DNA from: an uncultured Thermoleophilia bacterium
GTDB lineage: Bacteria > Actinomycetota > Thermoleophilia > UBA2241
Assembly: GCA_963777895.1 (NCBI GenBank)
Contig: CAVZSF010000003.1
Location: forward strand, 124,989 to 188,988
Reading direction: 5' to 3'
Length of the DNA stretch: 64,000 bases
Shown here: positions 8,700 through 59,427 of the stretch, piece after piece
Layout of the letters: every line of letters starts with the position of its first letter
Position numbering within the stretch: the first letter of the stretch is position 1
Made by a program: the position numbers and the translations under genes
Notes under the pieces: model-generated
The model's input: only the letters and a program-made list of their open reading frames with translations
Database searches by the model: none
What the model was told of the DNA's origin: nothing

Positions 8700-9914
8700 T
8701 CAGGACTGGTCCGGCCGGCGGGCCGCAAGGTCGGCGAAGCTGCGCGTCCGCAGCCCCGCGTGCTTCTCGGCGATCGTCACCGCCAGCGCATCCAGCGCCG
8801 CGAAGTCGGCCGCGCGCGGCAGCCCCTTGGCCAGCACTGGCTCAAGGAACTCGACCTTGAGCTTGTCCATCATGCCGACGAGTGTCTCGACGGTCTTGCC
8901 GGCCCAGCCGTAGGAGCCGATCACCGTCGCGTACTTGGTGCGCGGCTTGAGCGCGTTCGCGAGGAAGGCCGCGTGGGCGGCCAGCGGATGCGGCCCGGTG
9001 AGCACCGTGGGCGTCCCGATCACAACGGTGCCGGCGTGCACCAGCGAGCTGGCGAGCTCGCCGGCATCCAGGGTCGTGAGGTCGAAGCGCTCGACGGCTA
9101 CGCCCCGGTCCGTCAGGGCCGCCGTCAGGTGATCCACCATGAGCAACGTGCTGTCGTGCATCGAGACGAACGGCAGGCAGACGATGTTCTGCGGGTCCCC
9201 GGTCGCCCAGTCCCGGTAGGCCTCGATGATGAAGCTGGGGTCGTCGTACACAGGACCGTGGCTCGGTCCGATCAGCGCGATCGGGTACTTCGTCACCTTC
9301 TCGATGTTCTTCGTCACCTGACCACCGAACGGCATCATGATCTCGGCGTAGTAACGCTTCGCCCCGTCGTAGACCTCGTGCCTGTCGGCGAAGACGTCGT
9401 TGGTCGCGTAGTGAGAGCCGAAGAAGTCGCAGCTGAAGAGCATCCTGTCTTCGGCGAGCCAGGTGCTCATCGTCTCGGGCCAGTGGACCCAGGGCGTGAG
9501 GACGAAGGTGAGGGTCTTGTCGCCGAGGCTGAGGGTGTCGCCGTCGGCGACCACCTGGAAGCGCGCGTCGTCTACGTGCAGATGGTCGATCAGCATCCCC
9601 CTCGCCTTCTCATTGCAGACGATGGTGAGGTCGGGGAAACGCTCGAGCAGCATCGGGGTCGAGCCTGAATGGTCCTGCTCGACGTGGTGGATGACGAGGA
9701 AGTCGGGGGCGGGCAGGTCGTCGAGCTGGGCGCTCAGGGTGGGCCACTTCGCGGGGTCGACCGTGTCGATGAGAACGCTCTTCTCGCTGCCCTTGACGAA
9801 GTAACTGTTGTAGCTGGTGCCGTGGGGCAGCGGGATGAGCGCGTCGAACAGGCGGCGATCCCAGTCGACGGCGCCGATGAGGTAGACATTCGGGACGATC
9901 TCGCGTGGCTTCAT
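8700..9914 (-). CDS. Flavodiiron protein (FprA / A-type flavoprotein: MBL-like di-iron domain plus flavodoxin domain)
   Basis: Di-iron ligand motifs HHVEQDHSGS and PWVHWPETM, with a C-terminal flavodoxin-like domain (TVVIGTPTV…). ATG at 9914 is preceded by GAGGGG. Confidence 0.8.
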   Translation of the reverse strand: MKPREIVPNVYLIGAVDWDRRLFDALIPLPHGTSYNSYFVKGSEKSVLIDTVDPAKWPTLSAQLDDLPAPDFLVIHHVEQDHSGSTPMLLERFPDLTIVCNEKARGMLIDHLHVDDARFQVVADGDTLSLGDKTLTFVLTPWVHWPETMSTWLAEDRMLFSCDFFGSHYATNDVFADRHEVYDGAKRYYAEIMMPFGGQVTKNIEKVTKYPIALIGPSHGPVYDDPSFIIEAYRDWATGDPQNIVCLPFVSMHDSTLLMVDHLTAALTDRGVAVERFDLTTLDAGELASSLVHAGTVVIGTPTVLTGPHPLAAHAAFLANALKPRTKYATVIGSYGWAGKTVETLVGMMDKLKVEFLEPVLAKGLPRAADFAALDALAVTIAEKHAGLRTRSFADLAARRPDQS

Positions 9915-9993
9915 GACACCCCTCGGGATGTAGCAGGCGAACGGCTGGCGGCAGGGATTATATCCACGCCGCACGCGCGGCTACCGCGCTGGC

Positions 9994-11319
9994 TTGGCCG
10001 GCACGACCGCTCGCTATACTGCCGCCATGAGTCCCTTCGCCCGAGACCGTCCGACTGCGCGCAGTGACCGCCGCAGGATGGTCCTCGTGTTGTTGCTGGT
10101 CGCCGCCGTCGCTTTGTGCGTGCGCTTCGCCTACGTCGCCCGCGCCGGCGGCCCGGCCGAAGACTACGTGCACGACGACCACGACGTGATCGGCATCAAC
10201 GTCGTGACCGGCCACGGGTTCAGCTACCAGGCGGGCAAGGACACGCCCACCATCACACGCGCACCCCTCTTCCCCCTGGTGCTGGGCGTGACCTATCTGG
10301 CCGCGGGACATCAAAGGGATTTCACCCTGTGGCGTTCCGTCGAGGCGGTCGTGGAGGCGGCCACCGCCGTCCTGCTCGCCCTCCTGGTACTGCAGGCCGC
10401 GCCCGGGGTGCCGCGAAACCTCCATATTGCCGGCGTTGCCGGCACTCTCTACGCCCTGAACCCGCAGGCAGCACAGTGGGCCACGAGGCTCACGCCTGAG
10501 ACGTGGATGACGTTCTTCGCGGTTCTGGCGGCGCTGGCGTTCGTCGTCTGGCTCCGCCGGGCGAGTTACGCCAGCGCCGCCCTCCTGGGCCTGACCCTGG
10601 GCCTCCTGATCCTGACGAAGAGCGTGTCGCTGGGCGTGCCCGTCATCGCCGCCGTCGCCGGCGCCCTGCTGGTGCGCCGCGACGGGGCCCCGGCCCGACG
10701 CGCCGTCCTGTGCGGCGTGCTCGTCCTCGTCGTGGCGTACAGCGTGGTCGCGCCCTGGACGATCCGCAACTATCGGGTGTCGCACGCGTTCGTCCCCGTC
10801 CAGACCCTGACTTGGTACAACTTCTGGATGGGGATGGAGGCTGGACGAGGTCCCTCGCCCGGCTACGACCCTCTCTCCGTGGAGTACCAGACGCGGCCGT
10901 TCTCTATAGAGCAGAAGACGCCCGCGCAGGATCTGCAGCGAGAGGCCATGTTGCGCGACCACGCCTTGACGTTCGTTCGTGAGCATCCTGGTGGCATGGC
11001 TCGGAAGATCGGCGACGACCTCGTCGCCTTCTGGTACGAGTGGAACGCGGCGACCTTGAGGACCCCCGCAGCCGCCGCCTATCTGCTACAGCTTGCCTTG
11101 GCGGTCGCGGGCGTCGTCATCGGGCTGCGACGGCCAGGCCTGCGCCGGCTCGCCGGCGTGTGCCTGGCCTTCCCGGTCTACTACGTCGTCGCGTACTCAC
11201 CGTTCTTCGCGCACTTCCGCTTCTCCCTGCCGACGATCCCGTTCACGGCCGCGCTCGCGGCCATCGCGCTGGTGGCGGCTGCCCGGTGGGGGCGGACTCT
11301 GACGCGGCCGTCGTCGTAG
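9994..11319 (+). CDS. Membrane glycosyltransferase, GT39/GT83 (ArnT / PMT_2-like)
   Basis: Multi-TM protein with an N-terminal D-rich loop (EDYVHDDHDVIG) and PMT_2-like topology. The start could be 9994 or 10027. TAG stop at 11317-11319. Confidence 0.65.
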   Translation: MAGTTARYTAAMSPFARDRPTARSDRRRMVLVLLLVAAVALCVRFAYVARAGGPAEDYVHDDHDVIGINVVTGHGFSYQAGKDTPTITRAPLFPLVLGVTYLAAGHQRDFTLWRSVEAVVEAATAVLLALLVLQAAPGVPRNLHIAGVAGTLYALNPQAAQWATRLTPETWMTFFAVLAALAFVVWLRRASYASAALLGLTLGLLILTKSVSLGVPVIAAVAGALLVRRDGAPARRAVLCGVLVLVVAYSVVAPWTIRNYRVSHAFVPVQTLTWYNFWMGMEAGRGPSPGYDPLSVEYQTRPFSIEQKTPAQDLQREAMLRDHALTFVREHPGGMARKIGDDLVAFWYEWNAATLRTPAAAAYLLQLALAVAGVVIGLRRPGLRRLAGVCLAFPVYYVVAYSPFFAHFRFSLPTIPFTAALAAIALVAAARWGRTLTRPSS

Positions 11320-17910: not shown

Positions 17911-18189
17911 CTCGGCCTCCTCGGCTCACGCTGCCGGAGCAGCGAACGCTTGCTGGCGGACCGGCCGGACGGCGCCGACCGGGCCTCGCGCTGATTCTAC
18001 GGCGCGAGGCCCGGCCTCCGCCGATCCGCGCCTTCGCTGCGCACGTACCGCGCTCGCCCGCCAAGGCGCAGTCGACCACCCTTGCGCGCCTCGAGCCGAT
18101 GTGCTTCTGTCAGCGAGATGACAGCAGGGGGTGCCCGCGCTCGGCCGTCCCCGCGACGGCCCGCCAGGCCCGCCCATCGAGGAGGAGAC

Positions 18190-18588
18190 ATGGAGGACAT
18201 CAGCACCAAGCGAGTCCGCGTCGTCAAGCCTGAGGACGTCGCCTGGGAGCCGGCGGCCGTCTATCCCGAAGAGCAGGACCCGCCCGGGAAGGAATACACC
18301 GCGGCGCAATCGTTCGACGAGAAGTTCAGCTTCGGCCTGTGGCAGCGCGACGTGCAGCGTCGCTACTTCGAGCGGCCCTACCACGAGATCGCCTACATCA
18401 TCGAAGGCCAGGTCGAGATCACCGAGGACGACGGCACGATCGTCATCGCCGGCCCGGGCGACGTCCTCATCACTCCCCGCGGCTCCAAGGGTTTCTGGAA
18501 GAACCTCACGCCGGTGAAGAAGGTCTGGGGCATCTACGAGGAGCCGAGCGGCGACATAGAGGCGTACAAGGGGCCGGGAGCGTTCTGA
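18190..18588 (+). CDS. Cupin-domain protein
   Basis: GGAGG-N4-ATG at 18190 (MEDISTKRV…). The conserved-barrel segment YHEIAYIIEGQVEITEDDGTIVIAGPGDVLITPRG fits a cupin. Confidence 0.6.
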   Translation: MEDISTKRVRVVKPEDVAWEPAAVYPEEQDPPGKEYTAAQSFDEKFSFGLWQRDVQRRYFERPYHEIAYIIEGQVEITEDDGTIVIAGPGDVLITPRGSKGFWKNLTPVKKVWGIYEEPSGDIEAYKGPGAF

Positions 18589-18766: not shown

Positions 18767-19984
18767 ATGGCCACGCCCGCCGAGCCCCCCGCCCCCCTGC
18801 GCGATCGCCTGCGCGCCCTCGACCCCAACGTCAGGGGCATGGGCTGGGTCAGCTTCGTGGCCGATCTCAGCAGCGAGATCGTCTACCCCCTCTTCCCGCT
18901 CTTCATCACGAGCATCCTGGGCGCGCCGGTCGCCGTGCTCGGCGTGATCGAGGGCATCGCCGAGGGGACGGCGACCTTCCTCCGCTATCCGTTCGGCATC
19001 CTGTCGGACCGGCTCGGCAGACGACGCCCGTTCGTCTTCGTCGGCTACGGCCTCAGCGCCGTCGGCAAGCTCTTCATCGCGCTGGCGGGCGTCTGGGGCA
19101 TCGCTCTGCTCGGCCGCGTCGTCGACCGCGCCGGCAAGGGCATCCGGACGGCGCCCCGCGACGCGCTGATCGGCGCCGGCACGCCCCCAGAACAGCAGGG
19201 CCTCGCCTTCGGCCTGCACCGCACCATGGACACGATGGGGGCGGCCATCGGTCCCCTGATCGCCTTGGCCGCCCTCGAGCTGGGGCTGCCGTTTCGCTGG
19301 GTGCTCGGCCTGGCGGTCGTGCCGGCGCTGCTCAGCGTGGTCGTGATCGCGCTGGCCGTGCGCGAGCGCCGTCAGGCGCCCTCGCCGGCCGCCTTCCGCT
19401 TGCGGCTGCCGGCCTCGCCGGCCTATCGCTGGCTGCTCGCCGGCTCGCTCGTCTTCGGCCTCGGCAACTCCAGCGACATGTTCATCTTGCTGCGCGCGCA
19501 GGACGTCGGCCTGGGCGCGAGCGGGATCATCCTCGTCTACGTGCTCTACAACGTGGTCTACGCGGCCGCCTCGCTGCCGCTCGGCGGCCTCTCCGACCGT
19601 ATCGGGCAGTTCCCTCTCGTGATCGCCGGCTACGTCGTCTTCGCCGCCGTGTATCTCGGGTTCGCGGTGGCAGGGTCGATCGCGGGGGTCACCGTGCTGT
19701 TCGCGGTGTACGGCCTGTACATCGCCGCCACGGAGGGCACAAGCAAGGCGCTGATCAGCCGGGCGACGCCGCTGAGCGAGCGGGCCTCAGCCATCGGACT
19801 GCAGGCCACGCTCGGCGGCGTCGCCACTCTGCTCGCCAGTTCCCTCGGCGGCGTCCTCTGGTCGGCGGCCGGCCCCTGGGCGACCTTTGCCCTCGGCGCC
19901 GCCTGCGCTCTCGCCGCGGCCGCCCTCATGACACTGGGCCGCGGCGCGGTCCGACGCAGCCTCGCGCCGGCGACTTCCGTATGA
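18767..19984 (+). CDS. MFS transporter
   Basis: 405 aa, 12 predicted TM segments, with an MFS loop motif (GILSDRLGRRRP). Confidence 0.75.
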   Translation: MATPAEPPAPLRDRLRALDPNVRGMGWVSFVADLSSEIVYPLFPLFITSILGAPVAVLGVIEGIAEGTATFLRYPFGILSDRLGRRRPFVFVGYGLSAVGKLFIALAGVWGIALLGRVVDRAGKGIRTAPRDALIGAGTPPEQQGLAFGLHRTMDTMGAAIGPLIALAALELGLPFRWVLGLAVVPALLSVVVIALAVRERRQAPSPAAFRLRLPASPAYRWLLAGSLVFGLGNSSDMFILLRAQDVGLGASGIILVYVLYNVVYAAASLPLGGLSDRIGQFPLVIAGYVVFAAVYLGFAVAGSIAGVTVLFAVYGLYIAATEGTSKALISRATPLSERASAIGLQATLGGVATLLASSLGGVLWSAAGPWATFALGAACALAAAALMTLGRGAVRRSLAPATSV

Positions 19985-20050: not shown

Positions 20051-21031
20051 GTGAGGTTGGCCATGGCAACGTCTGAACATCGTCTGCGGAAGCTTGCCGG
20101 CGTCGTCGCTGCTCCCGAGTTCGTCGTCCCCTGGCTCGACCGCATCTACGACCCCATCGAGATCGACCTGGTGTTCGCGCTGGCGGATGGACCGCTCTCG
20201 CGGGCAGCGCTGGCCGAGCGTCTCGGGCTTGCGCCGGCTGACCTCGCGCCGATCGTCTCGCGGGGCTACCGTCGTGCCGTCCTGGCCGGCGACGGCGACG
20301 AGCTCGCCGCCGACACCTTCTACGAGCGCTCCGCCATGTGGGCCCGCTCCGCGGGCCGCGGCAGCGTGCCGGACGACGTCCACAAAGCGCTCGCCGACTG
20401 GTGGCTCGACGCCTACGTCGACTCGGTGCGCGATGGTCTAGCGAAGCTCCAGGGCGGGGCCCCCGAGCCCGGCGGCGACGCCGACTACGCCTACCTTCTG
20501 CTCAGCGAGGCGGAAGAGATGGTGCGCCGCGAGGAGCACGTCTACCTGTGGCGCTGCGACTGCCGCACGCTCATGCGCGCCTGCGACCAGTCCGTGGACA
20601 ACTGCCTCCGCTTCCACAACGACCGCGACGTCGGGCTCGAGATCTCGAAGGAGCTCGCCATCGACATCCTGCGCGAAGCCGACGCCGCAGGGCTCATGCA
20701 CTGCGACTACGTCGGCTTCGGTGGGCCGACCGACCCGCACGCGATCTGCAACTGCTGCACAGACTGCTGCCAGCCCCAGCTCGCGTCGCAGCGTCTGGGG
20801 GTGAGCGACGTCTGGCCCCGGCGCCGGTACCTCGCGAGCGTGTCAGCAGACGCCTGCACTCTGTGCGGCACCTGCACCGAGCGATGCCCCTTCGGCGCCC
20901 TGAGCGTCGCGGCCACCGGCGCCGACGAGAGCCTCGTCCTTGCCGAGGATGAGTGCCGCGGCTGCGGCCTGTGCGCGACGACCTGTCTGGAAGCGGCCAT
21001 CCAGATGGTGGCGCGGCCCGGCGCGGCCTGA
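20051..21031 (+). CDS. Cys-rich iron-sulfur protein with two C-terminal 4Fe-4S ferredoxin motifs. Uncharacterised family; paralog of 22834..23796.
   Basis: CDCR…C…C, CNCCTDCC, then CTLCGTCTERCP and CRGCGLCATTC (CxxCxxCxxxCP-type). Confidence 0.6.
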   Translation: MRLAMATSEHRLRKLAGVVAAPEFVVPWLDRIYDPIEIDLVFALADGPLSRAALAERLGLAPADLAPIVSRGYRRAVLAGDGDELAADTFYERSAMWARSAGRGSVPDDVHKALADWWLDAYVDSVRDGLAKLQGGAPEPGGDADYAYLLLSEAEEMVRREEHVYLWRCDCRTLMRACDQSVDNCLRFHNDRDVGLEISKELAIDILREADAAGLMHCDYVGFGGPTDPHAICNCCTDCCQPQLASQRLGVSDVWPRRRYLASVSADACTLCGTCTERCPFGALSVAATGADESLVLAEDECRGCGLCATTCLEAAIQMVARPGAA

Positions 21032-21398
21032 GTGGCGCAGACACAAGGCGCGTGAGCGGCCATGGCCCGCCGCGCGGCCCGAGGGACGCAGACACCTCAC
21101 CCGCCGCGCGCGCCTGCTTGCCGACACCCGGGCGCGTGACTATCATCGAGAGTGCCGCACAGTCCCGAGGAGCGCCGCCATGCAGCCACTCATGAAGCCT
21201 CAGCCGCTCGGAGCGCTGGACTTCGTCATGCGCTGGCGCCCCAACTGTCACTGCTGGACAAGCGAGCCGCTCTTCCACGGCTAGACCCGGGCCGCGAGTC
21301 CGGCGTCGGCCCGACCGGCCGCCGCCCTCAGCCTCCGCGGCGCCAAGGTCCTGCACGGCGCCGCGCCTTCCCCTTCACCATGACGCCTGGGAGGCGCA

Positions 21399-22841
21399 GT
21401 GACAGACACCACCTCGAAAGTCGGCCGGCTGGCCTTTCTGAGCGAGGACGACAAGGGCCGCGTCTACGACGCCGCCCTGACGATCCTCGCCGACATCGGT
21501 ATGCGCGTGCATCACGACGAAGGCCGCGCGATCATGCTCGCGGCGGGCTGCACCCTGGACGACGACAAACGCGTGCACGTGCCCCGAGAGCTCGTCGCTC
21601 GGGCTCGCGAGACGGCGCCGGCGAGCTTCATTCTGCACGACAGGACCGGCGCTCCCGCCTTTACCGTCGGCGGCTACGCGGCCGTCTTCGGAACCGGCTC
21701 TGACCTCATGCATCTCTACGATCTGGAGAGCGGCGAGCGACGGCGCACGTCGCTCGCCGACGTCGCGACGTGCGCCCGTCTCTGCGACGCGCTCGACAAC
21801 ATCGACTTCGTCATGTCGAGCGCGTATCCGCACGAGGTCGAGTCGCACCGCGCGTACCTCGAGGAGTTCCGCGCGATGGTGCTCGGCACGACGAAGCCGC
21901 TCGTCATGACGGCCGAGGGCGGCCGCGACCTCGAGCGCATGTGGGCCGCCGCCTGCGAGCTGCGCGACGGCCCCGAGCAACTCCGCGCCCGACCGTACTT
22001 CGTCGTCTACGACCAGCCGAGCAGTCCGCTGGACCATCCGACGGACAGCGTCGACAAGCTGCTCTTCTGCGCCGACGCCGGCATCCCCGTGATCTACTCC
22101 CCCGCCCCCCTGGCCGGAGGCACCGCGCCGATCACCGTGGCCGGGCACGTGGCGCAAGGCGTCGCCGAGTCGCTTTTCGGGCTCGTGCTGCACCAGCTCC
22201 ACCGGGCGGGATCCCCGTTCCTCACGGGGATGGGCCCGGCCGTCCTCGACATGGCCACCGCCCAGTCCTCCTACAACGCCCCGGAGTACCTGCAGGCCTA
22301 CGCCTGCTTCGTGGAAATGGCGCGCTGGCTGGACCTGCCGAACTGGGGCTACGGCGGCACGACGGACGCGCAGCTCGTCGACGCGCAAGCCGGCATGGAG
22401 ATCGCCGAGCTGACGCTGCTCAGCATGCTGCTCGGCTCCAACCTCAACCACGACGTCGGCTACCTCGACTTCGGCATGACGGGGTCGCTCGAGCAGATCG
22501 TCATCGTCGACGAGTACATCGCCATGAACCGCCGCCTGCTCGGCGGCGTCGAGGTGAGCGACGACACCCTGGCCCTTAACGTCATCGCCGACATCGGTCC
22601 GGGCGGCGACGCGCTCAGCCACCGGCACACTGCCAAGCACCTGCGCACCGCACAGTGGCGGCCACGCATCCTCAACCGCAAGGGCCACGAACGCTGGATC
22701 GAGGACGGCGCGCCGGATCTCCGCGAAGCGGCCCGCCGGCGCGCCCTGCAGGTCCTCGACGCGCACGTCCCGGCGCCGCTCGACGAGCACGCCAGGACGC
22801 GCATCGACGAGATCGTCGAGGGGTTCCAGACAGATGGCTGA
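21399..22841 (+). CDS. MttB-superfamily methyltransferase with no internal amber codon (presumed non-pyrrolysine; quaternary-amine or methylamine:corrinoid methyltransferase family)
   Basis: 480 aa. GGGAGG before GTG. TMA-methyltransferase-family N-terminus (…YDAALTILADIGMRV…) and C-terminus (…DDTLALNVIADIGPGG…HRHTAKH…). No internal stop. Confidence 0.85.
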   Translation: MTDTTSKVGRLAFLSEDDKGRVYDAALTILADIGMRVHHDEGRAIMLAAGCTLDDDKRVHVPRELVARARETAPASFILHDRTGAPAFTVGGYAAVFGTGSDLMHLYDLESGERRRTSLADVATCARLCDALDNIDFVMSSAYPHEVESHRAYLEEFRAMVLGTTKPLVMTAEGGRDLERMWAAACELRDGPEQLRARPYFVVYDQPSSPLDHPTDSVDKLLFCADAGIPVIYSPAPLAGGTAPITVAGHVAQGVAESLFGLVLHQLHRAGSPFLTGMGPAVLDMATAQSSYNAPEYLQAYACFVEMARWLDLPNWGYGGTTDAQLVDAQAGMEIAELTLLSMLLGSNLNHDVGYLDFGMTGSLEQIVIVDEYIAMNRRLLGGVEVSDDTLALNVIADIGPGGDALSHRHTAKHLRTAQWRPRILNRKGHERWIEDGAPDLREAARRRALQVLDAHVPAPLDEHARTRIDEIVEGFQTDG

Positions 22842-23796
22842 GCGCCCGGCGGCAGTCCAGGGCTCGTGCAACGACCGCCTCGAGAAACGCCTCGAGAGAC
22901 TCGCGGCCATCGTGGGCGCGCCGCCCTTCATGCTCCCCTGGCTCGACCGCTTCTACGAGGAGACCGAGGTCGACCTCGCCTTCGAGGCCGCGGAAGGGCT
23001 GCTGCCGGGGACGCACCCGGAGGACGCGCTCAACCGGTCGTATCGCCGTGCGGTGCTCGACCGTGACGGGGAGGCCTGGTCGCCGGCGAGCTTCCATGCG
23101 CGCTACGAGCTGTGGGCCCTCTACGAAGACTGGCGCGACATCCCGCAGAGCGTGCGCGACGAGCTCAACGTGTGGGAGCTCGACGACTACCTCGTCGAGG
23201 TCGGTGACGGCATCGCCTCGGTGCGCGAGGGACGGAGCACCGAGGGCGACCAGCTGGACTACACCTTCCTGCTGCTCGAGGAGGCGGAGGAGCTGCTCCG
23301 CGCCCGTCCGGCGGTCTACCTCTGGCCCTGCAACTGCCGCGCCATGATGGGCCGGTGCGAGCACTCGCACGCGGTCTGCCTGCGCTTCGACAACAACCGC
23401 GGCATCGGCTGGGAGATAAGCCCGGAACGCGCCGTCCAGATCCTGCGCCAGGCAGATCACGAAGGGCTCGCGCACACCGCGTATCTCATGAGCACCCACG
23501 GTCACCACGGCATCTGCAACTGCTGCAGCGACTGCTGCTTTCCGATCCTCGCCGGCGAGAAGCTCGGAGCGGCCGACGTGTGGCCCGTGCGCCGCTATCT
23601 TGCCGTGATCGACGACGCCGAGTGCACACGATGCCGCCGCTGCGAGAAACGCTGCCCCTTCGGCGCCATCTCGTTCGGCGGGAAGGGAAGACCCATGCAG
23701 ATCGACCCTCACGTGTGCCGAGGCTGCGGCCTGTGCTCCACCGGCTGCGAAGAAGAATCGATCCTGATGGAAGCGCGGGCGCCTGTTCCGGCCTGA
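22834..23796 (+). CDS. Cys-rich iron-sulfur protein, paralog of 20051..21031. Translationally coupled to the upstream MttB-family gene.
   Basis: ATGGCTGA start/stop overlap with the MttB gene. Same Cys pattern as its paralog (CNCR…C, CNCCSDCC, CTRCRRCEKRCP, CRGCGLCSTGC). The N-terminal regions align with the paralog (…PWLDR.Y…DL.F…). Confidence 0.6.
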   Translation: MAERPAAVQGSCNDRLEKRLERLAAIVGAPPFMLPWLDRFYEETEVDLAFEAAEGLLPGTHPEDALNRSYRRAVLDRDGEAWSPASFHARYELWALYEDWRDIPQSVRDELNVWELDDYLVEVGDGIASVREGRSTEGDQLDYTFLLLEEAEELLRARPAVYLWPCNCRAMMGRCEHSHAVCLRFDNNRGIGWEISPERAVQILRQADHEGLAHTAYLMSTHGHHGICNCCSDCCFPILAGEKLGAADVWPVRRYLAVIDDAECTRCRRCEKRCPFGAISFGGKGRPMQIDPHVCRGCGLCSTGCEEESILMEARAPVPA

Positions 23797-28108: not shown

Positions 28109-29257
28109 TCAGTTGTACACGGGCTGGATCTCGCGCCACGTACCGCCCACGACACGCACGTGCAGCGCCACGATCCTGTCGAGCGCGTACAGGACGCCCG
28201 GGTCGAACATGATGGTCTGGTCGCCCTTGAGGACCACGTCCCCCTTGGCGATCAACATACCGTGCACGACGAAGCCGCCGTTGTTCGTGAAGGGCCCGTC
28301 CGTGTAGATGAGGCCGTAGAAGTCGCCGTTGCCACCCACGGTCAGCCCCCCGCCGCCCTCGAGGATGAGGATGCCCGGGAGCTTGGGGAGAGCAATCGTT
28401 CCGGCGCCGTTCGTGGTGCCGTTCGGCAGGTTGCTCAGGCCGTTCGTCTTGATGTACGTGATCCCCTCGAGTGCCGAGTTTGCCCAGCTCGCCACGGAAG
28501 GGGTCGTGTACTTGTGGGTGGCGGAGTCCTTGAGGATGGCCAGCACGTCCGGAGACAGGATCGTATCGGCGGAGGGCGTGGAACTGCCCGTCTGGCCACT
28601 GACGTTCGTGTCCAGCACGTCACCCCACTGGCTCGCGGGCAGGAGCCCGCTCGTGCTGTAGAAGCCCCCGGCGACTTCGGCCACGGCGGGGTCACCCGTC
28701 GTCGCCACATCCGCCTTCCAGTTGTTGATGGTCACTGTGCCGGGCGTGTTCAGGGCCACGTTACGGCGCAGCAGCGGGCTGAGGTTCACCAACTGCAGCT
28801 GCGCTTGGACGCGCGAAGCGCTGTTCCCGACACCCGCCTGTGCCTCGACATACAGCAGGCCGTCCTTGTTGGCGTCATACGGCACGCCGTCGGCACGGGT
28901 GACCTGTCCGTCTTCGTTGGTGTCCGCGTTGTCGAAGTACACGACGCTCACGAACGGCCCCTTGCCGGTCTTGGGGTCCGGGAAGTCCGTCGTGCTGAAG
29001 CTGTTCCTGAACGCGGTCGTGTCGAAGGTCGGGGCGGTCGTCGTCGGCCACTTGGCCGGAGCGCTCAAGTCGTACATCACCCGGTCGAGCGCAGCCTCCG
29101 CCACGTTGAACGATTTCGCCCTGTTCCGGTCCGTGCGCGTGTTGCTCTGTGCGTTCACTACGAGGATCACGAGCGACGAAGCAAGGATGGCGAGCGCGGC
29201 GACGATGCCGATCACCAGCACCAGGCTCGCGCCTCTCTGTGACTTAGCTCTGCGCAT
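28109..29257 (-). CDS. Type IV pilus minor pilin / pilus assembly protein with a PilX-N-terminal-like domain
   Basis: N-terminal TM (GASLVLVIGIVAALAILASSLVILVV) followed by …RAKSFNVAEAALD, characteristic of PilX_N. Confidence 0.6.
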   Translation of the reverse strand: MRRAKSQRGASLVLVIGIVAALAILASSLVILVVNAQSNTRTDRNRAKSFNVAEAALDRVMYDLSAPAKWPTTTAPTFDTTAFRNSFSTTDFPDPKTGKGPFVSVVYFDNADTNEDGQVTRADGVPYDANKDGLLYVEAQAGVGNSASRVQAQLQLVNLSPLLRRNVALNTPGTVTINNWKADVATTGDPAVAEVAGGFYSTSGLLPASQWGDVLDTNVSGQTGSSTPSADTILSPDVLAILKDSATHKYTTPSVASWANSALEGITYIKTNGLSNLPNGTTNGAGTIALPKLPGILILEGGGGLTVGGNGDFYGLIYTDGPFTNNGGFVVHGMLIAKGDVVLKGDQTIMFDPGVLYALDRIVALHVRVVGGTWREIQPVYN

Positions 29258-29266
29258 GCTTGCCCC

Positions 29267-29917
29267 CTAGAATTGCCGCGAGTTTCGCGGTTGGACCGTC
29301 GTCACGATCTCCGTGCGATTGGGCGAGTGGCCTGGGTTCAGGTCGATCAGCATCCTGATCTTCACCGATACGATCGAGCTCGTCGAGACGCCGTCCCACG
29401 CCGCCAGGCGTCCCGCGCTGTCGTACATGTAGTACTCGAACAAGGGGGCGCTCCCATCGGTCGGGCGGACGCAGTTCGTCGCCACCTTCATCTTCCTGTC
29501 GGTGTAGAAGGAGAGGCCCGCGGCGCCGTCGCTGTCTTCCACGCGGTAGAGGTCGTAGGTGCCCGAGGACGCCACGTATCGCATCAGGTAGCCGATGAGG
29601 ACAGGCGAGGTATTCGCCGCGTTGGCCGCGTCCGAGTCATTGAACAGCGTCGTGAAGTAGAGGCGATACGGCCTCGCCGTGCGGATCGATGCATAGCCCG
29701 GGACGGGCTGAGCGTCCCTGATCTCGCGGCTCAGCCGCCTCGTCGCGTCACGCGCGTACTCTCTCGCCTTCGTGTCCTTCGTCGTGAAGGAGTACGAGTC
29801 GCTGAGCGCGATCCACGAGGTGATGAGCATGGCGGATATCACCGTCGTGATGGTCATGCCCACGAGCAGCTCGATGAGGGTGATGCCGGCCTGTCGCTTG
29901 TCGCGTCTTCCTGTCAT
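29267..29917 (-). CDS. Prepilin-type N-terminal cleavage/methylation-domain protein (pseudopilin, PilW-like)
   Basis: GITLIELLVGMTITTVISAMLI class III signal peptide motif. Confidence 0.7.
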   Translation of the reverse strand: MTGRRDKRQAGITLIELLVGMTITTVISAMLITSWIALSDSYSFTTKDTKAREYARDATRRLSREIRDAQPVPGYASIRTARPYRLYFTTLFNDSDAANAANTSPVLIGYLMRYVASSGTYDLYRVEDSDGAAGLSFYTDRKMKVATNCVRPTDGSAPLFEYYMYDSAGRLAAWDGVSTSSIVSVKIRMLIDLNPGHSPNRTEIVTTVQPRNSRQF

Positions 29918-29933
29918 CGCAGCCCCCTCGCCC

Positions 29934-31669
29934 TCAGAAGACGAAGTCGATGGTTGTGGCGTTCGTGAGCATGGTGGTCTGTGACTTGGTCACCTGTACC
30001 GTCCCGACGTAGGCGACCGCGGTGACCCGGTAGGAGCCATAGGGCATGGGAACGGACGCCAGCCAGATCGCCGTGCCGTTGCTCGCGATGGACTTCGCCC
30101 CCTTACTGACGTCGGGGTCCGGATCGAGATAGGTGACCGTCACGGTGGCGTTGGCGTTGTAGACGCGCACGGTCAGAGAGTAGTTCTGCGCGGTGCCAGT
30201 CGTGGCCGTCACCGCGGCGCTGGCCGCAGACGTGTTCAGCGCCCCATCGACCGCCTTGAGATAGTAGCTGCGCGGCGACGTCGACCACCCGGGGACGTCG
30301 TTGTAGCTCGTCTGTCCTGGTCCCACGGTCGCGAGCAGGCTGCCGTCCCGGTAGATCTGATAGGCGAAGACGCCCGTCACCGGTTCGCCGACCGCGCCGG
30401 ACGGATCGGAGGCAGCCGCCCAGGTGAGCCGGACGTTCGGCCCCTGCGCCGTCGCGGCAAGCGATGCAGGCGCAGTGGGCGCGGTCTTGTCGGCCGACGA
30501 GACCAGGGGTGTGAGCGCCACGACGTTGCTGTTGGCGCTGCGCAGACCGAACGTGTCGACGACCTGCACGCGATACTCATAGGCCGTGCCGGCCACGACG
30601 CCCCGGTCGATGAAGAAGGTCGACAAGGCGCCGGCGGCGGCGTACGGGTCGGTCGGCCATGTGGTGCTGCTCGCTTCCTTGCGGAAGACGTCGTAGTGGT
30701 CGATGTCGGTGTCGCTCGGGGCCGCCCACGAGAGACTTGCCCCGCCGACGCCCGCCACACCGCTGACGATCACCGTCCCCGGCGCCCCCTTGTCGAGTGC
30801 AAAGGTCAGCTGCCAGACGTTGCCTGGCTGTCCGGCGACGATGCCCAGGGTCGGACTCGGGCTTGGGGTCGGCGCGGGGGTCGGCCCGACGAGGGTGCTG
30901 CCGGTGTAGGCGACCGCGGAGAAGGTGTAGGTGCCGTCGGGTGCCCCTGCAGCCACCGTCCAGGTCGTCGTGAACACCCCGTTCACGTGCTCACTGTTGG
31001 CTGCGTTGTAGCTCACCGTGGACGTGTAGGAGCCTGTGCCGCCCACCCTGTTGATGCGGAACTCGACGCGTCCCACACGCTGGCGGTCGGCGGCGGAGAT
31101 CGTCGCCGTCAGGGTAACGGTGGTGGCCGAAGAAGCGGACGTGTGGATATAGGAGCCCTCGTGGTCTACGTCCGACGCCAGTGGCGTCACCGCGAGGTTG
31201 GTGATCTGCGGTCCGGAGTCTTGGCGCGTAATGTTCGTACGGAGCACGACGCGCCTGCCAGCCGCGGAGCCCGAGCCAAGCCAAGTCACCGTGACGGTCA
31301 CCTGCTTGTAGGCGAGCACGCCGGTCGTGCTGCCGGTCGGCTTTACCTCGGTGACGCCGTAGTCGACGGTGAAGTTCTTCGAGGCGCTGCCCACCTGCGT
31401 CGTGACGGTGGGGCCGAACTGTCCCGCTGAGAAGCTGGGGTTGTAGAGGTTCGGCGTGGAGGCCGGAGTGGCCGAGTCCGCGACGATCTCGTCGTAGTCG
31501 AGCGTCCGGATCCTCTCGAGCTTGTCCTGCGCGATGTTGACCGCAACGGTCTTGGCACGGTCCTCCGAGCCCTTGCCGGCCGCCTGCACGAACAACGGCA
31601 CCATCGCCGCGAACGCGATGCCGGCGATGACGATGGTGACGAGCAGTTCGACGATGCTGAATCCCGCAT
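29934..31669 (-). CDS. Large pilin-like protein: prepilin N-terminus plus fibronectin-III/Ig-like repeats and a Pro/Thr/Ser linker. Apparent one-base deletion in the start region.
   Basis: With a GGG->GGGG correction the N-terminus reads MRGFSIVELLVTIVIAGIAFAAMVPLF…, a canonical prepilin leader. Downstream are TPAPTPSPSPT and FN3-like segments (…WAAPSDTDIDHYDVFRK…, …TWAAASDPSG…YQIYRDGS). Confidence 0.6.
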
Positions 31670-37466: not shown

Positions 37467-38300
37467 TCAGGAGCCGGCCGCCGCCACGCCCAGCTGCAGG
37501 ATCTCGCGCGCCTCGTCGGGGGTGGCGCACTCGCGCCCCCACTCCGCGGCGAGGCGCGCCACGCGGCCGGTCAGCTGGGCGTTGCCGTCCGTCAGCACGC
37601 CCTTGTGGTAGTAGATATTGTCCTCGAGCCCGAGGCGCACGTTGCCGCCCAGGGCGAGCGCGGTCATGGTGACCGGCATGTGCCAGCGGCCGATGCCGGT
37701 CGCCGTCCACGTCGAGCCCTCGGGGAGACGGTCGACGAGGAAGGCGACGTTGCGCGGCTCGCCGCTCATACTGCCGGGCACGCCCAGCACGAAGTCCCAG
37801 TGCATGAGCGGGCCGGCCGGACCGAGCTGCTTGACCAGCCGCACGGCGTTATCGATCTGGCCGGCCTCGAAGATCTCGAACTCGGGCCGCACGCCCTTCG
37901 CCTGCATGCGCGTGTAGAACTCCTTCATCAGGGCGGTGTCGTTGAAGAACACCTCGTCGCCGAAGTTGGCCGTGCCGGTCGTCAGCGACGCCACCTCGGG
38001 GTTCAGCTCCAGCGGCTGCAGGCGTTCGTCGGCGGTCATGCCCATGGCCCCGCCGGTCGAGGCCTGGATAATGACGTCGGTCCGCTCGCGGATGGCGGCA
38101 ACTGCGGCCGCGAAAACGTCCCTGTCCTGGGTCGGCGTGCCGTCCGGCCGCCGCACGTGCAGGTGATAGACGCTGGCGCCGGCCTCGCGGCAGCGGGCCG
38201 CGTCCTCGCCGATCTCCTGCGCCGAGATCGGCAGGGCCGGCTGCGCCTCCCTGGTCGTCTCGGCGCCCACGCCCGCGACAGTGATGATGAGCTTGTCCAT
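37467..38300 (-). CDS. kce: BKACE-family beta-keto-acid cleavage enzyme (3-keto-5-aminohexanoate cleavage enzyme Kce-like, DUF849)
   Basis: 277 aa TIM-barrel family signature (MDKLIITVAGVGAETTREAQPALPISAQEI…HLHVRRPDG…, …GLEDNIYY…). Confidence 0.8.
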   Translation of the reverse strand: MDKLIITVAGVGAETTREAQPALPISAQEIGEDAARCREAGASVYHLHVRRPDGTPTQDRDVFAAAVAAIRERTDVIIQASTGGAMGMTADERLQPLELNPEVASLTTGTANFGDEVFFNDTALMKEFYTRMQAKGVRPEFEIFEAGQIDNAVRLVKQLGPAGPLMHWDFVLGVPGSMSGEPRNVAFLVDRLPEGSTWTATGIGRWHMPVTMTALALGGNVRLGLEDNIYYHKGVLTDGNAQLTGRVARLAAEWGRECATPDEAREILQLGVAAAGS

Positions 38301-38315
38301 CGAGCCTCCCCCCGG

Positions 38316-43475: not shown

Positions 43476-45261
43476 TCAGGCCTGCGTCGCGAACCCGAGC
43501 CGGGCGGCGAACTGCGCCTGGAAGTCCTTGTTCGTGGCGAGCTCGAGGAAGGAGATGCGGCGGCGCAGGCGCGCCATGCGACGGCGCGCGAGCACGTCGA
43601 TGAGGGCCATCTGGGCGCCCACCCCGGCGGCGTTGCCCACGAACAGGACGCGGTCCGTGGGCACCGGCGGCAGCAGGTCTATGTACAGCGAGTTGCCCAG
43701 GTCGAGGTAGTTGCCGAAGGCGCCGGCGACGTACACCCGATGCAGGTCGGCCACGCTCACCCCCAGGCTCTCGAGCAGCAGGGTCCAGCCTGTCGCGATC
43801 GCGCCTTTGGCCAACTGCAGGTTGCGCACGTCGTGCTGCGTGAAGACGATCTCGCCGTTGGGACCGCTGGTCAGCAGGTACTCGGACGATCCCGACTCGC
43901 CCTTGCGGACCAGCGGGTGCGACAGCATGCGTCCGCTGCGGTCCACGACGCCGCTGCGCACCAGACCGGCGAGCAGGTCGACCACGCCCGAGCCGCACAT
44001 GCCGAGCGGGGCGCCGTTCCCGATGGTCTGGATGCTCGCGGGGTGGCCGGCGGCATCGATCGTGACCTTCTCGATCGCGCCGGCGACCGCCTTCATGCCG
44101 TGGGTGATCTGGTAGCCCTCGAAGGCGGGGCCCGAGGCGCAGCTCGTCACGGTGACCTCGCCGTCGTGCACGAGGGCGATCTCGGTGTTGGTGCCGATGT
44201 CGATGGCGAGCGACGGGCGGCGGCGCGTCGCGAGCCGCGTCGCGGCGATCACGGCGAGCGCGTCCGAGCCGACGAACCCGGCGATCGGCGGCGGGAAGTA
44301 GACGCCGCCCTCGGGGTTCATGTCGATGCCGAGGTCGGCGCCGCGCACGAGCACCGGCTCGGCTGCAGCCGGCGCGTAGGGCGCGGCGCCGAGCCCCTGG
44401 GCCGGCAGGCCCAGGACCAGATGATGCATCGCCGTGTTGCCGACGACCGTCATGTCGTAGAGGTGCTTCGCCGCGATGCCCTGACGCTGATACAGGGCGG
44501 CCAGGCACTCGTTGACGCCCGACCTGGCCGCCTCCGCCAGCTCCGCGCGGTGCTCGCCCGACTGCGCGATGCGGCTCACGACGTCCTCGCCGTAGCGCAT
44601 CTGGGGGTTCTCCACGGCCTCGGAGTCGACGTGCTCGCCGCGTTCCAGGTCGAACAGGTACGTCACGATCTTCGAGGTGCCGATGTCGACCGCGGCGCCG
44701 TGGGCGACGCCCGCCGCCTCCGGCGCCTCGACATCGATCAGGCGCCGCCCGTACCGCGTGAACGTCGCGCGCCAGCCGTTGCCGCGGAGCACGTCCGGCG
44801 CCTCCCGCAGTGCCTGGTACGGGACCTCGACCCCGTGCAGCACGGCCTGCACGCGCTCGAGGTCGCTGCGGGCGTCGCCGATCACGGGCGGGTCGAGCTG
44901 CTCGGTCACGCGCGTCACCGCCGGATGGGCGGCGCCGTGCCGCAGCCGGCTCGTGGTCAGGATGCGCCTGCGTGCCGCTGGTCTCGCGCACCTCGATGCT
45001 GACACGGGAGGACACCGGCCGCGCCTGACAGGCGAGCCGCCAGCCCGTGGCGCGCAGCTTCTCCGGGACCTTGCGGATCTCGACCTCGGTCGGCTCCGTG
45101 AGCTCGCCGGCCCCGAGGCGCACGAGGCACTTGCCGCACGTGCCCCGTCCGGCGCACACGTTGGGGACGTCGATACCGACCCGCAGGAGGGCGTCCAGCA
45201 AGGTCTCGTCCTGGCCGACCTCGAGGGTCACGCCGATGGGCTCGACGAAGACTTTGGTCAC
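43476..45261 (-). CDS. Corrinoid reductive activase (RamA/RACE family: N-terminal 2Fe-2S ferredoxin domain plus ASKHA ATPase domain), with an apparent frameshift near 44900-45005
   Basis: N-terminal plant-type ferredoxin (MTKVFVEPIGVTLEVGQDETLLDALLRVGIDVPNVCAGRGTCGKCLV…) in one frame. The ASKHA/DUF4445 body (…AAVDIGTSKIV…, …AIDIGTNTEIALV…, …CGSGVVDLLAGL…) is in the adjacent frame (ORF 43476..45005). Confidence 0.7.
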
Positions 45262-48263: not shown

Positions 48264-48438
48264 GTCGTCACTGCCTCCGAGGGACGAGAGGCGGCAGGCC
48301 GCCGCGGCCACTCTACATCACCCTCGCTGGCCCCGCAGCCGGACCCCGGTCGCCCCGCCGGCCCACCGCGTCGTACAGTAGCCGCACAGGGCGGCAGGCC
48401 GTCCGCCGGGGAACGAGCGCGAGGAGGATCGCCCCGCC

Positions 48439-49560: not shown

Positions 49561-49562
49561 GT

Positions 49563-49599
49563 GACGGGGCGGGCGGCACCTGGTGCCGCCCGCCCCGTC
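49563..49599. terminator. 18-bp GC hairpin between convergent genes (bidirectional terminator)
   Basis: GACGGGGCGGGCGGCACC-T-GGTGCCGCCCGCCCCGTC. Confidence 0.5.
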
Positions 49600-49624
49600 T
49601 CGAGCATTCCGTCCTGCGCCACTG

Positions 49625-51081: not shown

Positions 51082-51126
51082 TTGCAGTCATCTGGACCTC
51101 ACGATGGGTACTTGTCTGGGACGTTC

Positions 51127-52819: not shown

Positions 52820-54316
52820 GTGCCGATGAAGCGCAACCTGCACGCCGGCCACCCGCGGAGGGGTGGCCTCAGCCTCAACGTCTTCACCGAGGCAGAGCTC
52901 GACGACATCCACCTCGCGTCCCTCGAGGTGCTGGAGCGCACCGGGATGTGGGTCGAGGACGACGAGGCGCTCGCCATCTTCGCGGACGGCGGCTGCCGCG
53001 TGGACCGCGAGAGCCGGATGGTCCGGATCCCGCCGCACGTCGTCGAGGACGCGATACGCAGCGCGCCACCGCTCTTCGTGCTCGCCGGGCGCGACCCGGC
53101 CAACGACATCGTGCTCGAGCCCAGCCGCGTGTCGTTCTGCAACTTCGACGAAGGCATCATGGTCAACGACCTGCGCAGCGGCGAGCATCGCGAGCCCACT
53201 CTGAGCGACATCGCCGAGTTCGCCCGCCTGGTGGACGCGCTGCCGCACATCGACTGCTACGAGCCCGCCGCGGGACCGTCCGACGTGCCGCACGAGACAG
53301 CGGTCCTGCACGGCACCGAGGCCGCCCTGCACAACTGCACGAAGTGCGTCGGCACCGAGGCCATTTCGGCGTGGGAGGTCCGCAAGGTCCTCGAGATGGC
53401 GGTCGCCGTCATGGGTAGCGAAGATGCCCTCCGCGAACGGCCGATCGTAGGCTTCGGCTGCTGCCCCGTGAGCCCGCTGAAGCTGCCGCACGACGCCACC
53501 GAGGTGATCGTCGAGACGGCACGCCGGGGCATCCCCTGCGGCGTGCTCTCGATGGCGATGTCCGGCGGGTCTTCCCCCGTAACGCTGGACGGCACGCTCG
53601 TGCTGCACAACGCGGAGGTCCTTGCCGGCATCACACTCTCGCAGCTCACAGAACGGGGCGCCCCGGTCGACTACGGGACCTCGACCACGGCCATGGACAT
53701 GAAGCTGGCGGCGGCGAGTGTCGGGTCGCCGGAGCTGGCCCTGTTCAGCGCCGCCGTGGCGCAGATGGCGCGACGGTACCTGATCCCGAGCTTCGTGGCG
53801 GGGTTGTAGGCGGATTCGAAGCTCGGTGACGCGCAGACCGGTCACGAGAAGACCCTCACCGGCCTGATGGCTGCGTTGGCAGGGGCCAACCAGATCTACG
53901 GGGCGGGGATGATCGAGTCGGGCGTCACCTTCGACGGAGCGCAGCTCGTTATGGACGACGAGATCGCCGGGATGATCAAGCACTGTGTCATGGGCATTTC
54001 TGTGAGCGACCCCACCATGGCGGTGGAGGACATCGCCGAGGTCGGACCGTTCGGGGACTTCTTGAGCCTGGACGCGACACTGCGGCACATGCGGGCACTC
54101 AGCCAGCCGGCGCTGCTCGACCGTCGCGTGCGCGAGGACTGGGAGGAGCGCGGCGCCAGCGACCTGTACGCGAGGGCGCAGGCGAAGGCCCTCGAGATCG
54201 TCGAGGGCCACAAGCCCGCGCCGCTCGACCCCGACGCGGCGCGGCAGATCCGCGCCATCGTCGAGACCGCCGACCGTGAACGCGGCGTGGTCGCCCCGCC
54301 CGTCCAGTACACCTAG
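52820..54316 (+). CDS. mttB: Trimethylamine methyltransferase MttB of the pyrrolysine type, with an in-frame amber codon (TAG 53807-53809) at the position expected for pyrrolysine
   Basis: GGGAG RBS. Continuous frame over 498 codons, interrupted only by TAG at codon ~330. Flanking sequence …LSMAMSGGSSPVTLDGTLVLHNAEVLAGITLSQLT…[70 protein letters not shown]… closely matches archaeal and bacterial Pyl-containing MttB around Pyl334 (495-aa M. barkeri protein), as far as I can recall without an alignment. The gene also terminates with TAG. Confidence 0.75.
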
Positions 54317-55579: not shown

Positions 55580-55580
55580 G

Positions 55581-59384: not shown

Positions 59385-59427
59385 CGTCCGCCTGTCGTCT
59401 GGCGGGGCCTGGTCGCCCCGGCCCCGC

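Follow-up and report, generated by a model that had tools for sequence, protein, structure and literature searches.

A 64-kb window of DNA from an uncultured Thermoleophilia bacterium (the whole stretch analyzed, 64,000 nucleotides of contig CAVZSF010000003.1, ~70% G+C) encodes two paralogous iron-sulfur (Fe-S) proteins, here called FeS-A and FeS-B, on either side of a homolog of the corrinoid-dependent methyltransferase MttB. Judged from sequence, these proteins belong to what looks like an undescribed and widespread family of soluble Fe-S proteins of about 320 residues, a new recurrent component of quaternary-amine operons. Our preferred reading, held tentatively and at somewhat less than an even chance, is that this FeS family is a predicted ferredoxin-dependent oxidoreductase acting on a small-molecule pathway intermediate. 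Rather than helping methyltransferases specifically, the family probably supplies a missing redox step. We favor an oxidoreductase because nine cysteines are strictly conserved, the ferredoxin module is of an enzyme type, the architecture is constant, and a canonical corrinoid activase is encoded separately.

Each protein is composed of three parts: an acidic, degenerate winged-helix-like N-terminal domain (N-domain), a domain of ~115 residues that contains the nine cysteines (the nine-Cys domain), and a 2x[4Fe-4S] ferredoxin domain. AlphaFold models of this arrangement are confident (pLDDT 91 at full length, 89 over residues 1-250). They display a helix-helix-helix-hairpin followed by long helices (residues ~30-85), an alpha/beta domain (residues ~140-245) and the ferredoxin fold in the remainder; only the ferredoxin domain resembles a solved structure, and no solved structural relative of the nine-Cys domain was found. 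In FeS-B the nine cysteines are C166, C168, C175, C182, C228, C230, C231, C234 and C235, spaced as CxCR-x5-C-x6-C ... CNCCxDCC. All nine are also present in FeS-A, whose Fer4 match lies at residues 262-320. An alignment of 85 members, reaching down to 21% identity, retains these nine cysteines together with R169, R189, N229, D233 and the eight ferredoxin cysteines, while almost nothing is kept in the N-domain, the least conserved part. Both window proteins carry every invariant residue and the standard architecture. The invariance of nine cysteines and four further residues is more than a simple electron wire needs, and the cysteines may bind one or two unusual Fe-S clusters.

We define the family by the motifs W-P-C-x-C-R-x5-C-x6-C-L-R-F and I-C-N-C-C-x-D-C-C-x-P ahead of a 2x[4Fe-4S] domain, with a total length of about 300-360 residues. 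A preliminary description of this DNA, made from its letters alone, had noted a shared N-terminal motif, the two cysteine clusters and two ferredoxin motifs that each end in CP. The N-terminal and cluster motifs are indeed common to FeS-A and FeS-B (PWLDR(I/F)Y, WxCxCR...C...CLRF and ICNCCxDCC), and two CxxCxxCxxxC motifs lie in a (beta-alpha-beta)2 fold of ~55 residues. However, only the first ends in CP (CTRCRRCEKRCP in FeS-B, CTLCGTCTERCP in FeS-A); the second lacks the final proline (CRGCGLCSTGCE in FeS-B, CRGCGLCATTCL in FeS-A).

The same description could not place the family, and database comparison leaves it unplaced. Pfam and NCBIfam recognize only the C-terminal Fer4 part of either protein, with all NCBIfam scores below their cut-offs. 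The N-terminal 255 residues gave no family match even at E<=10, apart from a weak hit to HTH_20 in FeS-A, and the nine-Cys domain alone gave no Pfam match at that threshold. A word-indexed protein search returned 613 relatives, the best of them 73% identical and from metagenome-assembled genomes (MAGs) of Thermoleophilia and other Actinomycetota. Their public labels are only '4Fe-4S binding protein' or 'PFOR delta subunit', the latter a JGI label that arises from the Fer4 part alone. Scanning one genome per species confirmed at least 511 loci among the first 600 pattern matches listed, in Thermoleophilia, other Actinomycetota, Desulfobacterales, Clostridia, Chloroflexota and others. Searching with the nine-Cys domain alone as a profile gave 500 clusters (50% identity), in nearly all of which the protein has 300-360 residues and the domain keeps a constant position; no fusion to another catalytic domain was seen among the matches. 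Some proteins of 200-240 residues consist of the nine-Cys and ferredoxin domains only; these may be fragments from short contigs. Full-text literature searches found no description of the nine-Cys FeS family and no link of MttB to hercynine, ergothioneine or histidine betaines.

Within the window, FeS-B is tightly joined to the MttB gene. Its ATG (22834) lies inside the end of the MttB frame and overlaps the MttB TGA (22839-22841) by 8 nucleotides (nt) at the junction cagATGGCTGAgc; the overlap is contained in ATGGCTGA, and a GAGGGG stands 10 nt 5' of the ATG. The 8-nt overlap had been described correctly, and the translational coupling drawn from it is upheld for FeS-B. It does not extend to FeS-A, which ends 367 nt upstream of MttB with a promoter-like site in the gap (TTGCCG-17-TATCAT, the region's only one; 1 found vs 0.2 expected). 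The gap matches no Rfam family. A 34-codon open reading frame (ORF), MQPLMKPQPLGALDFVMRWRPNCHCWTSEPLFHG, lies 3' of the promoter-like site and is probably spurious.

The bracketing of MttB by two Fe-S genes is real in the window but is not conserved. Elsewhere the two halves occur as separate units: EamA, M20 peptidase, cupin, (MFS) and FeS-A in L022 and L048, and MttB-FeS-B in L009 (labels of this kind denote genome loci that carry related FeS genes). Cupin orthologs precede the FeS-A orthologs of L022 (72% identity) and L048 (68%), and in L048 an MFS ortholog, 80% identical to that of the window, sits between the cupin and FeS genes. FeS-A and FeS-B are paralogs, as had been proposed, with 45% identity over 314 residues (E 9e-83), well beyond a chance resemblance. 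FeS-A is nearer to the proteins of L022 (59%) and L048 (51%), and FeS-B to those of L009 (65-68%), L010 and L011 (about 60%). Because each copy is closer to homologs at other loci than to its partner in the window, the pair is an old duplication and not a local tandem copy.

The middle gene scores 355 bits against TIGR02369, the Pyl-type equivalog model, below the cut-off of 525, and has no in-frame stop. Its best solved relatives are the glycine betaine methyltransferase MtgB (9yce/2qne, E 1e-53). These features identify it, at the level of sequence, as a non-pyrrolysine (non-Pyl) member of the MttB superfamily belonging to an FeS-linked clade. Orthologs with 49-87% identity to it lie near an FeS gene in 17 loci, and other MttB paralogs in those actinobacterial-clade loci are only about 30% identical to it.

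To describe the genomic context of the family, all ORFs of 80 genome loci were clustered and the families recurring within 10 kb of the FeS gene were counted. The most frequent were an ABC ATPase (27 of 80 loci), MttB (23), an ABC permease (21), an OpuAC-type binding protein (20), a MetY-like pyridoxal-phosphate enzyme (18), a HAL-like lyase (16) and an AOR-family tungsten enzyme (10). HdrA/Flx-like genes were found in 6-8 loci, an AAA ATPase and urocanase in six each, and a corrinoid protein in three. Gene context tracks the phylogeny of the FeS protein. In the actinobacterial (Actinomycetota/Thermoleophilia) clade, which holds both window paralogs, MttB is present in 17 of 23 loci, usually as an ortholog of the window gene with 56-87% identity to it. 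Across the whole set it is the immediate same-strand neighbor of FeS in seven loci, including that of Syntrophaceticus. This linkage across phyla is far above chance adjacency; for scale, about twenty MttB genes among ~4000 would, by our own estimate, make ~1% of immediate neighbors an MttB. The synteny with MttB suggested earlier is thus genuine and crosses phyla, but the family is not specific to MttB: larger subsets of it occur with OpuABC and MetY, with AOR, with HAL-like and Hut genes, and among unrelated genes.

The actinobacterial clade shows several arrangements. L009 has MttB>FeS with the same ATGnnTGA overlap as the window. In peat and soil Actinomycetota, an MttB>FeS>lyase unit recurs (L027 2205-6477, L039 7184-11237, L044 8270-12512). 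Another arrangement places FeS>AAA beside non-Pyl and pyrrolysine (Pyl)-type MttB genes, joined in L018 by a corrinoid protein. AOR adjoins FeS on the upstream side in L014 and on the downstream side in L010, and in L022 it lies downstream after one short ORF; in L007/L010 the FeS gene ends 3 nt before the AOR gene.

Several further features of these loci were observed. The AAA+ ATPase (PF00004) of about 500-580 aa, whose N-terminal half is unannotated, lies directly downstream of FeS, at a median gap of 14 nt and beside MttB clusters, in six Thermoleophilia loci (L013, L015, L016, L018, L019 and L050), at about 10.7-12.4 kb of the locus or, in L019, at 12.9-14.6 kb. In L001, a Thermoleophilia-type MAG, a Dimeth_Pyl dimethylamine methyltransferase gene (9045-10439, minus strand) is split by an in-frame TAG at codon 347 (...HVDGL*AGSGD...) and adjoins the FeS gene, MttB and an FAD_oxidored gene. 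A Flx-Hdr-like cluster of HdrA, FlpD and CCG genes is located upstream in L001, and such clusters also occur in L007/L010, L009, L012, L013, L018, L046 and L050.

Outside the actinobacterial clade, the partners change. In the Desulfobacterales loci L036, L038 and L043, HutH is transcribed divergently from FeS>TIM barrel>HutU, a row that FTCD and HutI extend in L036; MttB and AOR are adjacent in L036 and L038. L047, from Actinomycetes, forms a group of its own, with a co-oriented row of AOR, MttB, MttB, HutH, corrinoid protein, FeS, HutI, FTCD, cyclodeaminase and HutU. About 20 Firmicutes loci (L053-L075, L080), and Clostridium beijerinckii (L089 9001-15003), carry an OpuABC-FeS-MetY unit, ordered as permease, OpuAC binding protein, FeS, ATPase, permease and MetY, or as FeS-MetY followed by the transporter genes. 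These units contain no methyltransferase, corrinoid protein or other redox enzyme gene. Their flanks, like the immediate neighbors of FeS in the 80 loci as a whole, are heterogeneous and show no further conserved partner among unlabelled ORFs, and no Rfam riboswitch or leader was matched in seven loci or in the C. beijerinckii leader. The Syntrophaceticus row reads OpuABC, AcnX, RidA, FeS, MttB, Fe-ADH. In Desulfobacula (L045), RamA is followed by AOR, MttB, a DAO-type flavoprotein, an SBP_bac_5 binding protein, FeS, permeases and an ATPase. FeS stands in or beside three unrelated kinds of transporter: Opu-type ABC, where in the Firmicutes operons it lies between the binding-protein and ATPase genes, Opp/Dpp-type ABC (L045, L023), and MFS (the window, L048). 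The common denominators are a transporter and enzymes for N-methylated 'onium' compounds or for amino acids derived from them.

We propose that electrons would enter or leave a protein of this family via the two ferredoxin-type clusters and pass to one or two unusual clusters in the nine-Cys domain, where a small-molecule intermediate would be transformed. The pathways served would be the anaerobic uptake and breakdown of N-methylated compounds such as betaines. FeS-B may work stoichiometrically with the adjacent non-Pyl MttB, either preparing the MttB substrate or processing the demethylated product, and FeS-A may carry out an analogous step on a compound imported by the cupin-MFS unit. The domain architecture, its conservation, the lack of a known family or fold for the nine-Cys domain and the gene neighborhoods were observed directly, whereas the binding of clusters by the nine cysteines, the direction of electron flow, catalysis and the identity of the substrate are all predictions.

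Gene context argues for an enzyme in several ways. A position in or beside transporter operons is typical of an enzyme that acts on an imported compound. Since the OpuABC-FeS-MetY units have no other redox, methyltransferase or corrinoid gene, FeS is not a mere helper of such a protein there. Furthermore, the gene is tightly coupled to pathway enzymes: by the 8-nt MttB overlap in the window and L009, in the MttB-FeS-lyase units of L027, L039 and L044, in the FeS-TIM barrel-HutU-FTCD order of Desulfobacterales, and in the RidA-FeS-MttB order of Syntrophaceticus.

Several observations weigh against a dedicated oxidoreductase. The neighbors are very diverse (MttB, AOR, HAL-like lyase, MetY, RidA, TIM barrel, DAO, AAA ATPase), which would also fit a generic electron-transfer helper, and in many Desulfobacterales loci they share no theme at all. 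The FeS gene immediately ahead of AOR in L007/L010 is where the Fe-S subunits of bacterial AOR complexes are encoded. In L047 it directly follows a corrinoid protein, and the AAA ATPase directly downstream in six Thermoleophilia loci could point to ATP-coupled activation.

The HAL-like lyases give some indication of the compounds involved. Of the 16 found, seven have the Ala-Ser-Gly (MIO) triad and nine lack it, the latter including all those of the MttB-FeS-lyase units and some from Firmicutes. The loss of Ala-Ser-Gly is reported to mark trimethylammonia-lyases for ergothioneine or histidine betaine (2025 preprint, 10.1101/2025.08.13.670108). Ergothionase (6s7j) is the best solved relative of the L027 lyase, at E 2.8e-57; in the alignment, GESD faces GEGD at the MIO site. 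Where ergothionase has its thiolate-binding Lys384, this lyase appears to carry Ile, although the alignment is weak there; such a change would favor a sulfur-free substrate. From these sequences, the MttB-FeS-lyase unit suggests the catabolism of a histidine betaine.

A more specific form of the oxidoreductase proposal, which we regard as quite improbable, is a reductive ergothioneine desulfurase that is anaerobic and ferredoxin-dependent: ergothioneine + 2e- + 2H+ -> hercynine (histidine betaine) + H2S. If this were true, one activity would account at once for the MetY operons, the MttB-FeS-lyase units and the Hut operons. Clostridia would import ergothioneine through the Opu-type ABC transporter and pass the sulfide to MetY for homocysteine. 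In the Actinomycetota MttB-FeS-lyase unit, FeS would make hercynine, the non-Pyl MttB would remove one methyl group, and the ergothionase-like lyase would split off (tri/di)methylamine to leave urocanate, with the released methylamines feeding nearby Pyl-type MttB/MtbB. In Desulfobacterales and L047 the product would enter an anaerobic Hut pathway that is complete (HutH, HutU, HutI, FTCD), and the FeS-linked MttB clade would consist of hercynine-type methyltransferases, acting on a compound so far undescribed as a substrate in this superfamily. We temper this reading because the Opu binding protein resembles EgtUC no more than it does choline/betaine binders, the thiolate-binding lysine of ergothionase is seemingly not kept in the lyase, the window has no lyase, Hut or MetY genes, and the AOR, RidA/AcnX and DAO contexts are left unaccounted for. 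The Firmicutes binding protein was considered as an ergothioneine importer and gives no specific support, being about equally similar to choline/betaine binders, ProX, OpuCC and EgtUC.

The C. beijerinckii gene metY (Cbei_3543) and its 4Fe-4S neighbor (Cbei_3544) fall together with cysteine/methionine genes (PMC11497831). Matching gene order suggests that Cbei_3544 is a member of the FeS family, and this co-regulation would be the only experimental trace of the family in the literature searched.

Other explanations of the family all rank lower than the oxidoreductase, and some of the probability is assigned to none of them. The foremost, a real possibility though clearly an unlikely one, is a dedicated electron-transfer or activation partner of the MttB/corrinoid system that keeps the corrinoid as Co(I) directly, via RamA or with the AAA ATPase. 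Translational coupling to MttB in the window and L009, the prevalence of MttB in the actinobacterial clade (17 of 23 loci), the position directly after a corrinoid protein in L047, the FeS-AAA ATPase pairs beside MttB/MttC clusters in six loci, and the Flx/Hdr-like electron-bifurcation genes nearby in 6-8 loci would all fit such a partner. A precedent exists in HgcB, which serves a corrinoid protein and is likewise a 2x[4Fe-4S] ferredoxin carrying additional cysteines. However, a canonical RACo/RamA-type activase is already present in the window and in L045, which speaks against an activase role, and the FeS protein has no ATPase domain in Pfam or NCBIfam. A corrinoid protein is within 10 kb in only 3 of 80 loci, and none was found in the 64-kb window by a motif scan and tblastn with three corrinoid proteins of related loci. 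About 20 Firmicutes operons and many Desulfobacterales loci have neither MttB nor a corrinoid gene, and the cupin-MFS-FeS-A unit of L048 occurs without MttB. The activation role proposed in the preliminary description is weakened accordingly. Its suggestion of an undescribed accessory component fares better, in that the family is unplaced and linked to one MttB clade, but members occur just as readily in operons devoid of a methyltransferase, a corrinoid protein or any other redox enzyme. Its alternative, handling of the demethylated product, is one of the two roles that we propose FeS-B may have.

A generic ferredoxin-like carrier or adaptor, docking to whichever oxidoreductase is nearby (tungsten AOR, FAD-dependent amine dehydrogenases, Flx/Hdr-like) and lacking a catalytic site of its own, would accommodate the diversity of neighbors, yet we consider it unlikely. 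The OpuABC-FeS-MetY operons have no oxidoreductase to serve, and the window operon holds only MttB. The additional 250 residues, with nine invariant cysteines and invariant polar residues, exceed what a carrier needs, and the family keeps one constant architecture that was never seen fused to partner enzymes.

A redox- or metabolite-sensing transcription factor, in which a winged helix-turn-helix (HTH) joined to Fe-S sensor domains would control the neighboring catabolic and transport genes, was discounted as highly improbable on the acidity of the N-domain (median isoelectric point 4.9; 4.3 in FeS-B and 4.5 in FeS-A; above 8 in only 5 of 82) and on the deletion, in FeS-B and the majority of members, of the second would-be HTH helix, which FeS-A retains; in addition, the N-domain is poorly conserved and may be missing in the 200-240 aa forms, no HTH family match is significant (HTH_20 at residues 43-64 of FeS-A has E 0.38), and a regulator gene is not usually coupled in translation to the gene of an enzyme.

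The window also contains a larger complement of methyltransferase genes, and its features are collected below. At least five further MttB paralogs lie at 46.9-59.8 kb, among them a 971-aa ORF with two complete MTTB domains (tandem genes or a fusion, with no stop between) and a shorter MTTB-matching ORF that is apparently truncated. The RACo/RamA-type activase gene adjoins this MttB island, which also includes an amino-acid-type ABC transporter. One mttB gene is interrupted by an in-frame TAG, with MttB homology on both sides (readthrough ...SFVAGL*ADSKLG...), and Rfam PYLIS_3 matches with 61.3 bits against a gathering score of 38, beginning exactly at the TAG. Its sequence implies a pyrrolysine-type trimethylamine methyltransferase in a 70% G+C Thermoleophilia-like genome; pylTSBCD genes and tRNA-Pyl were not seen, although no search aimed at them was made. 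Pyl-type mttB and mtbB in Actinobacteriota MAGs, including the Bog-752 lineage from which L039 derives, have already been reported (PMC10805028). No HAL, Hut, MetY or AOR genes were found within the 64-kb window. Some other window genes are reminiscent of lysine/beta-amino-acid fermentation: a BKACE beta-keto acid cleavage enzyme, a class-III aminotransferase, a lysine-2,3-aminomutase-like radical SAM enzyme and an alanine-racemase-N-domain protein. Unrelated to the FeS finding, a gene with the prepilin-type N-terminus GITLIELLVGM suggests a type IV pilus or pseudopilus cluster.

Table 1. Coordinates of FeS-A, FeS-B, their domains and other features of the window.
Feature	Position	Strand	Description
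EutQ-like cupin	18187..18588	+	Pfam Cupin_3 E 8e-12; first gene of cupin-MFS-FeS-A unit
MFS transporter	18767..19984	+	Pfam MFS_1 E 2.9e-38; ends 66 nt upstream of FeS-A
FeS-A	20051..21031	+	326 aa, GTG start, from the ORF list
FeS-A/MttB gap	21032..21398	+	367 nt, promoter-like site 21118-21146
Short ORF in gap	21180-21284	+	34 codons
MttB homolog	21399..22841	+	480 aa, non-pyrrolysine, Pfam MTTB E 3.8e-81
FeS-B	22834..23796	+	320 aa, ATG start, from the ORF list
FeS-B N-domain	22834..23235	+	residues 1-134, acidic degenerate winged-helix-like fold and long helix
FeS-B nine-Cys alpha/beta domain	23236..23583	+	residues 135-250
FeS-B 2x[4Fe-4S] ferredoxin domain	23584..23796	+	C-terminal
Suggested type IV pilus/pseudopilus cluster	28109-31604	-	prepilin-type gene at 29267-29917
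Fermentation-like genes	37467-39584	-	
Fermentation-like genes	45392-46690	-	
Fermentation-like genes	48439-49887	+	
RACo/RamA-type ASKHA reductive activase	43476..45227	-	RACo_C_ter E 1.6e-76, Raco_middle E 5e-47, RACo_linker E 4e-12
Further MttB paralog	46965-48311	-	
Further MttB paralog	49625-52540	-	
Further MttB paralog	57993-59789	-	
Pyrrolysine-type mttB	52820..54316	+	in-frame TAG 53807 (codon 330), PYLIS 53807-53906
Amino-acid-type ABC transporter	54494-57827		SBP_bac_3, permease, ATPase

Corrinoid-dependent demethylation of quaternary amines by the MttB superfamily governs the trimethylamine output, and ultimately the methane or trimethylamine N-oxide output, of soils, sediments and guts, and only a few substrates and accessory proteins of these enzymes are known. 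If the FeS family is an enzyme, it marks a hitherto unknown redox step in anaerobic betaine metabolism, one that could deal with the demethylated product or with the sulfur that ergothioneine carries; as an electron-transfer partner, it would instead be a new accessory of quaternary-amine systems that works independently of ATP. The FeS context also singles out one non-Pyl MttB clade and might allow its substrate to be guessed, and homologs in cultivable organisms such as C. beijerinckii make the family testable.

Finally, the FeS family was compared with known systems. RamA, RamQ and RACo are likewise Fe-S proteins encoded with corrinoid methyltransferase genes, and they supply low-potential electrons. 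They are, however, defined by an ASKHA ATPase domain (RACo_C_ter, Raco_middle, RACo_linker) that FeS-A and FeS-B do not match at E<=0.1, whereas the same Pfam library detects all three domains in the window activase, over 43476-45005 of the minus strand. The preliminary description was therefore right to set the family apart from RamA/RACE. HgcB resembles FeS in having a 2x[4Fe-4S] domain, extra conserved cysteines and a gene beside that of a corrinoid-dependent methyl-transfer protein (HgcA), but it has about 95 residues and a few extra cysteines and lacks both the 250-residue N-terminal part and the nine-Cys domain; NCBIfam HgcB_ferredoxin gives FeS 25 bits against a cut-off of 99. The Fe-S subunits of the AOR family (AorA, the WOR5 small subunit) are polyferredoxins with no nine-Cys domain. 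PFOR/OOR delta subunits, at about 80 residues, also have none, and the TIGR02179 PorD_KorD scores of 30.7 and 40.2 bits, reached over the Fer4 part alone, fall short of the cut-off of 60 and do not place FeS among the PFOR delta subunits; no PFOR subunit genes were seen in the neighborhoods examined. Winged-helix regulators (MarR/ArsR/PadR) combine an intact HTH and wing, a basic surface and a significant HTH profile match, a combination that the FeS proteins do not show, and these proteins have no B12-binding domain of the DxHxxG Rossmann type or of the RDase/QueG fold.

Two kinds of Fe-S enzyme provide conceptual parallels. The [4Fe-4S]-dependent thiouracil desulfidase TudS and cysteine desulfidase use Fe-S clusters only, release sulfide from small thio-compounds without redox chemistry, and have no ferredoxin domain. 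No similarity of sequence or fold between them and the FeS family was detected, and by analogy desulfidase-type chemistry is the kind that the MetY-linked operons would need. In HdrB-type CCG proteins and ferredoxin:thioredoxin reductase, vicinal cysteines (CC, CxC) hold special [4Fe-4S] clusters that are catalytic and lie beside electron-feeding ferredoxin clusters. The FeS family is not a CCG-domain protein, as had been stated earlier: neither the N-terminal 255 residues nor the nine-Cys domain matches CCG (PF02754) at E<=10, and the same library detects CCG in a neighboring gene of L012. Motif spacing in these enzymes differs from CxCR-x5-C-x6-C ... CNCCxDCC, and the nine-Cys domain has no structural match to any solved protein. 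The vicinal cysteines of the nine-Cys domain (CxC, CNCC, DCC) nevertheless recall the catalytic clusters of HdrB and ferredoxin:thioredoxin reductase. We take this likeness as a lead, and it is the concept from which our mechanistic proposal derives.

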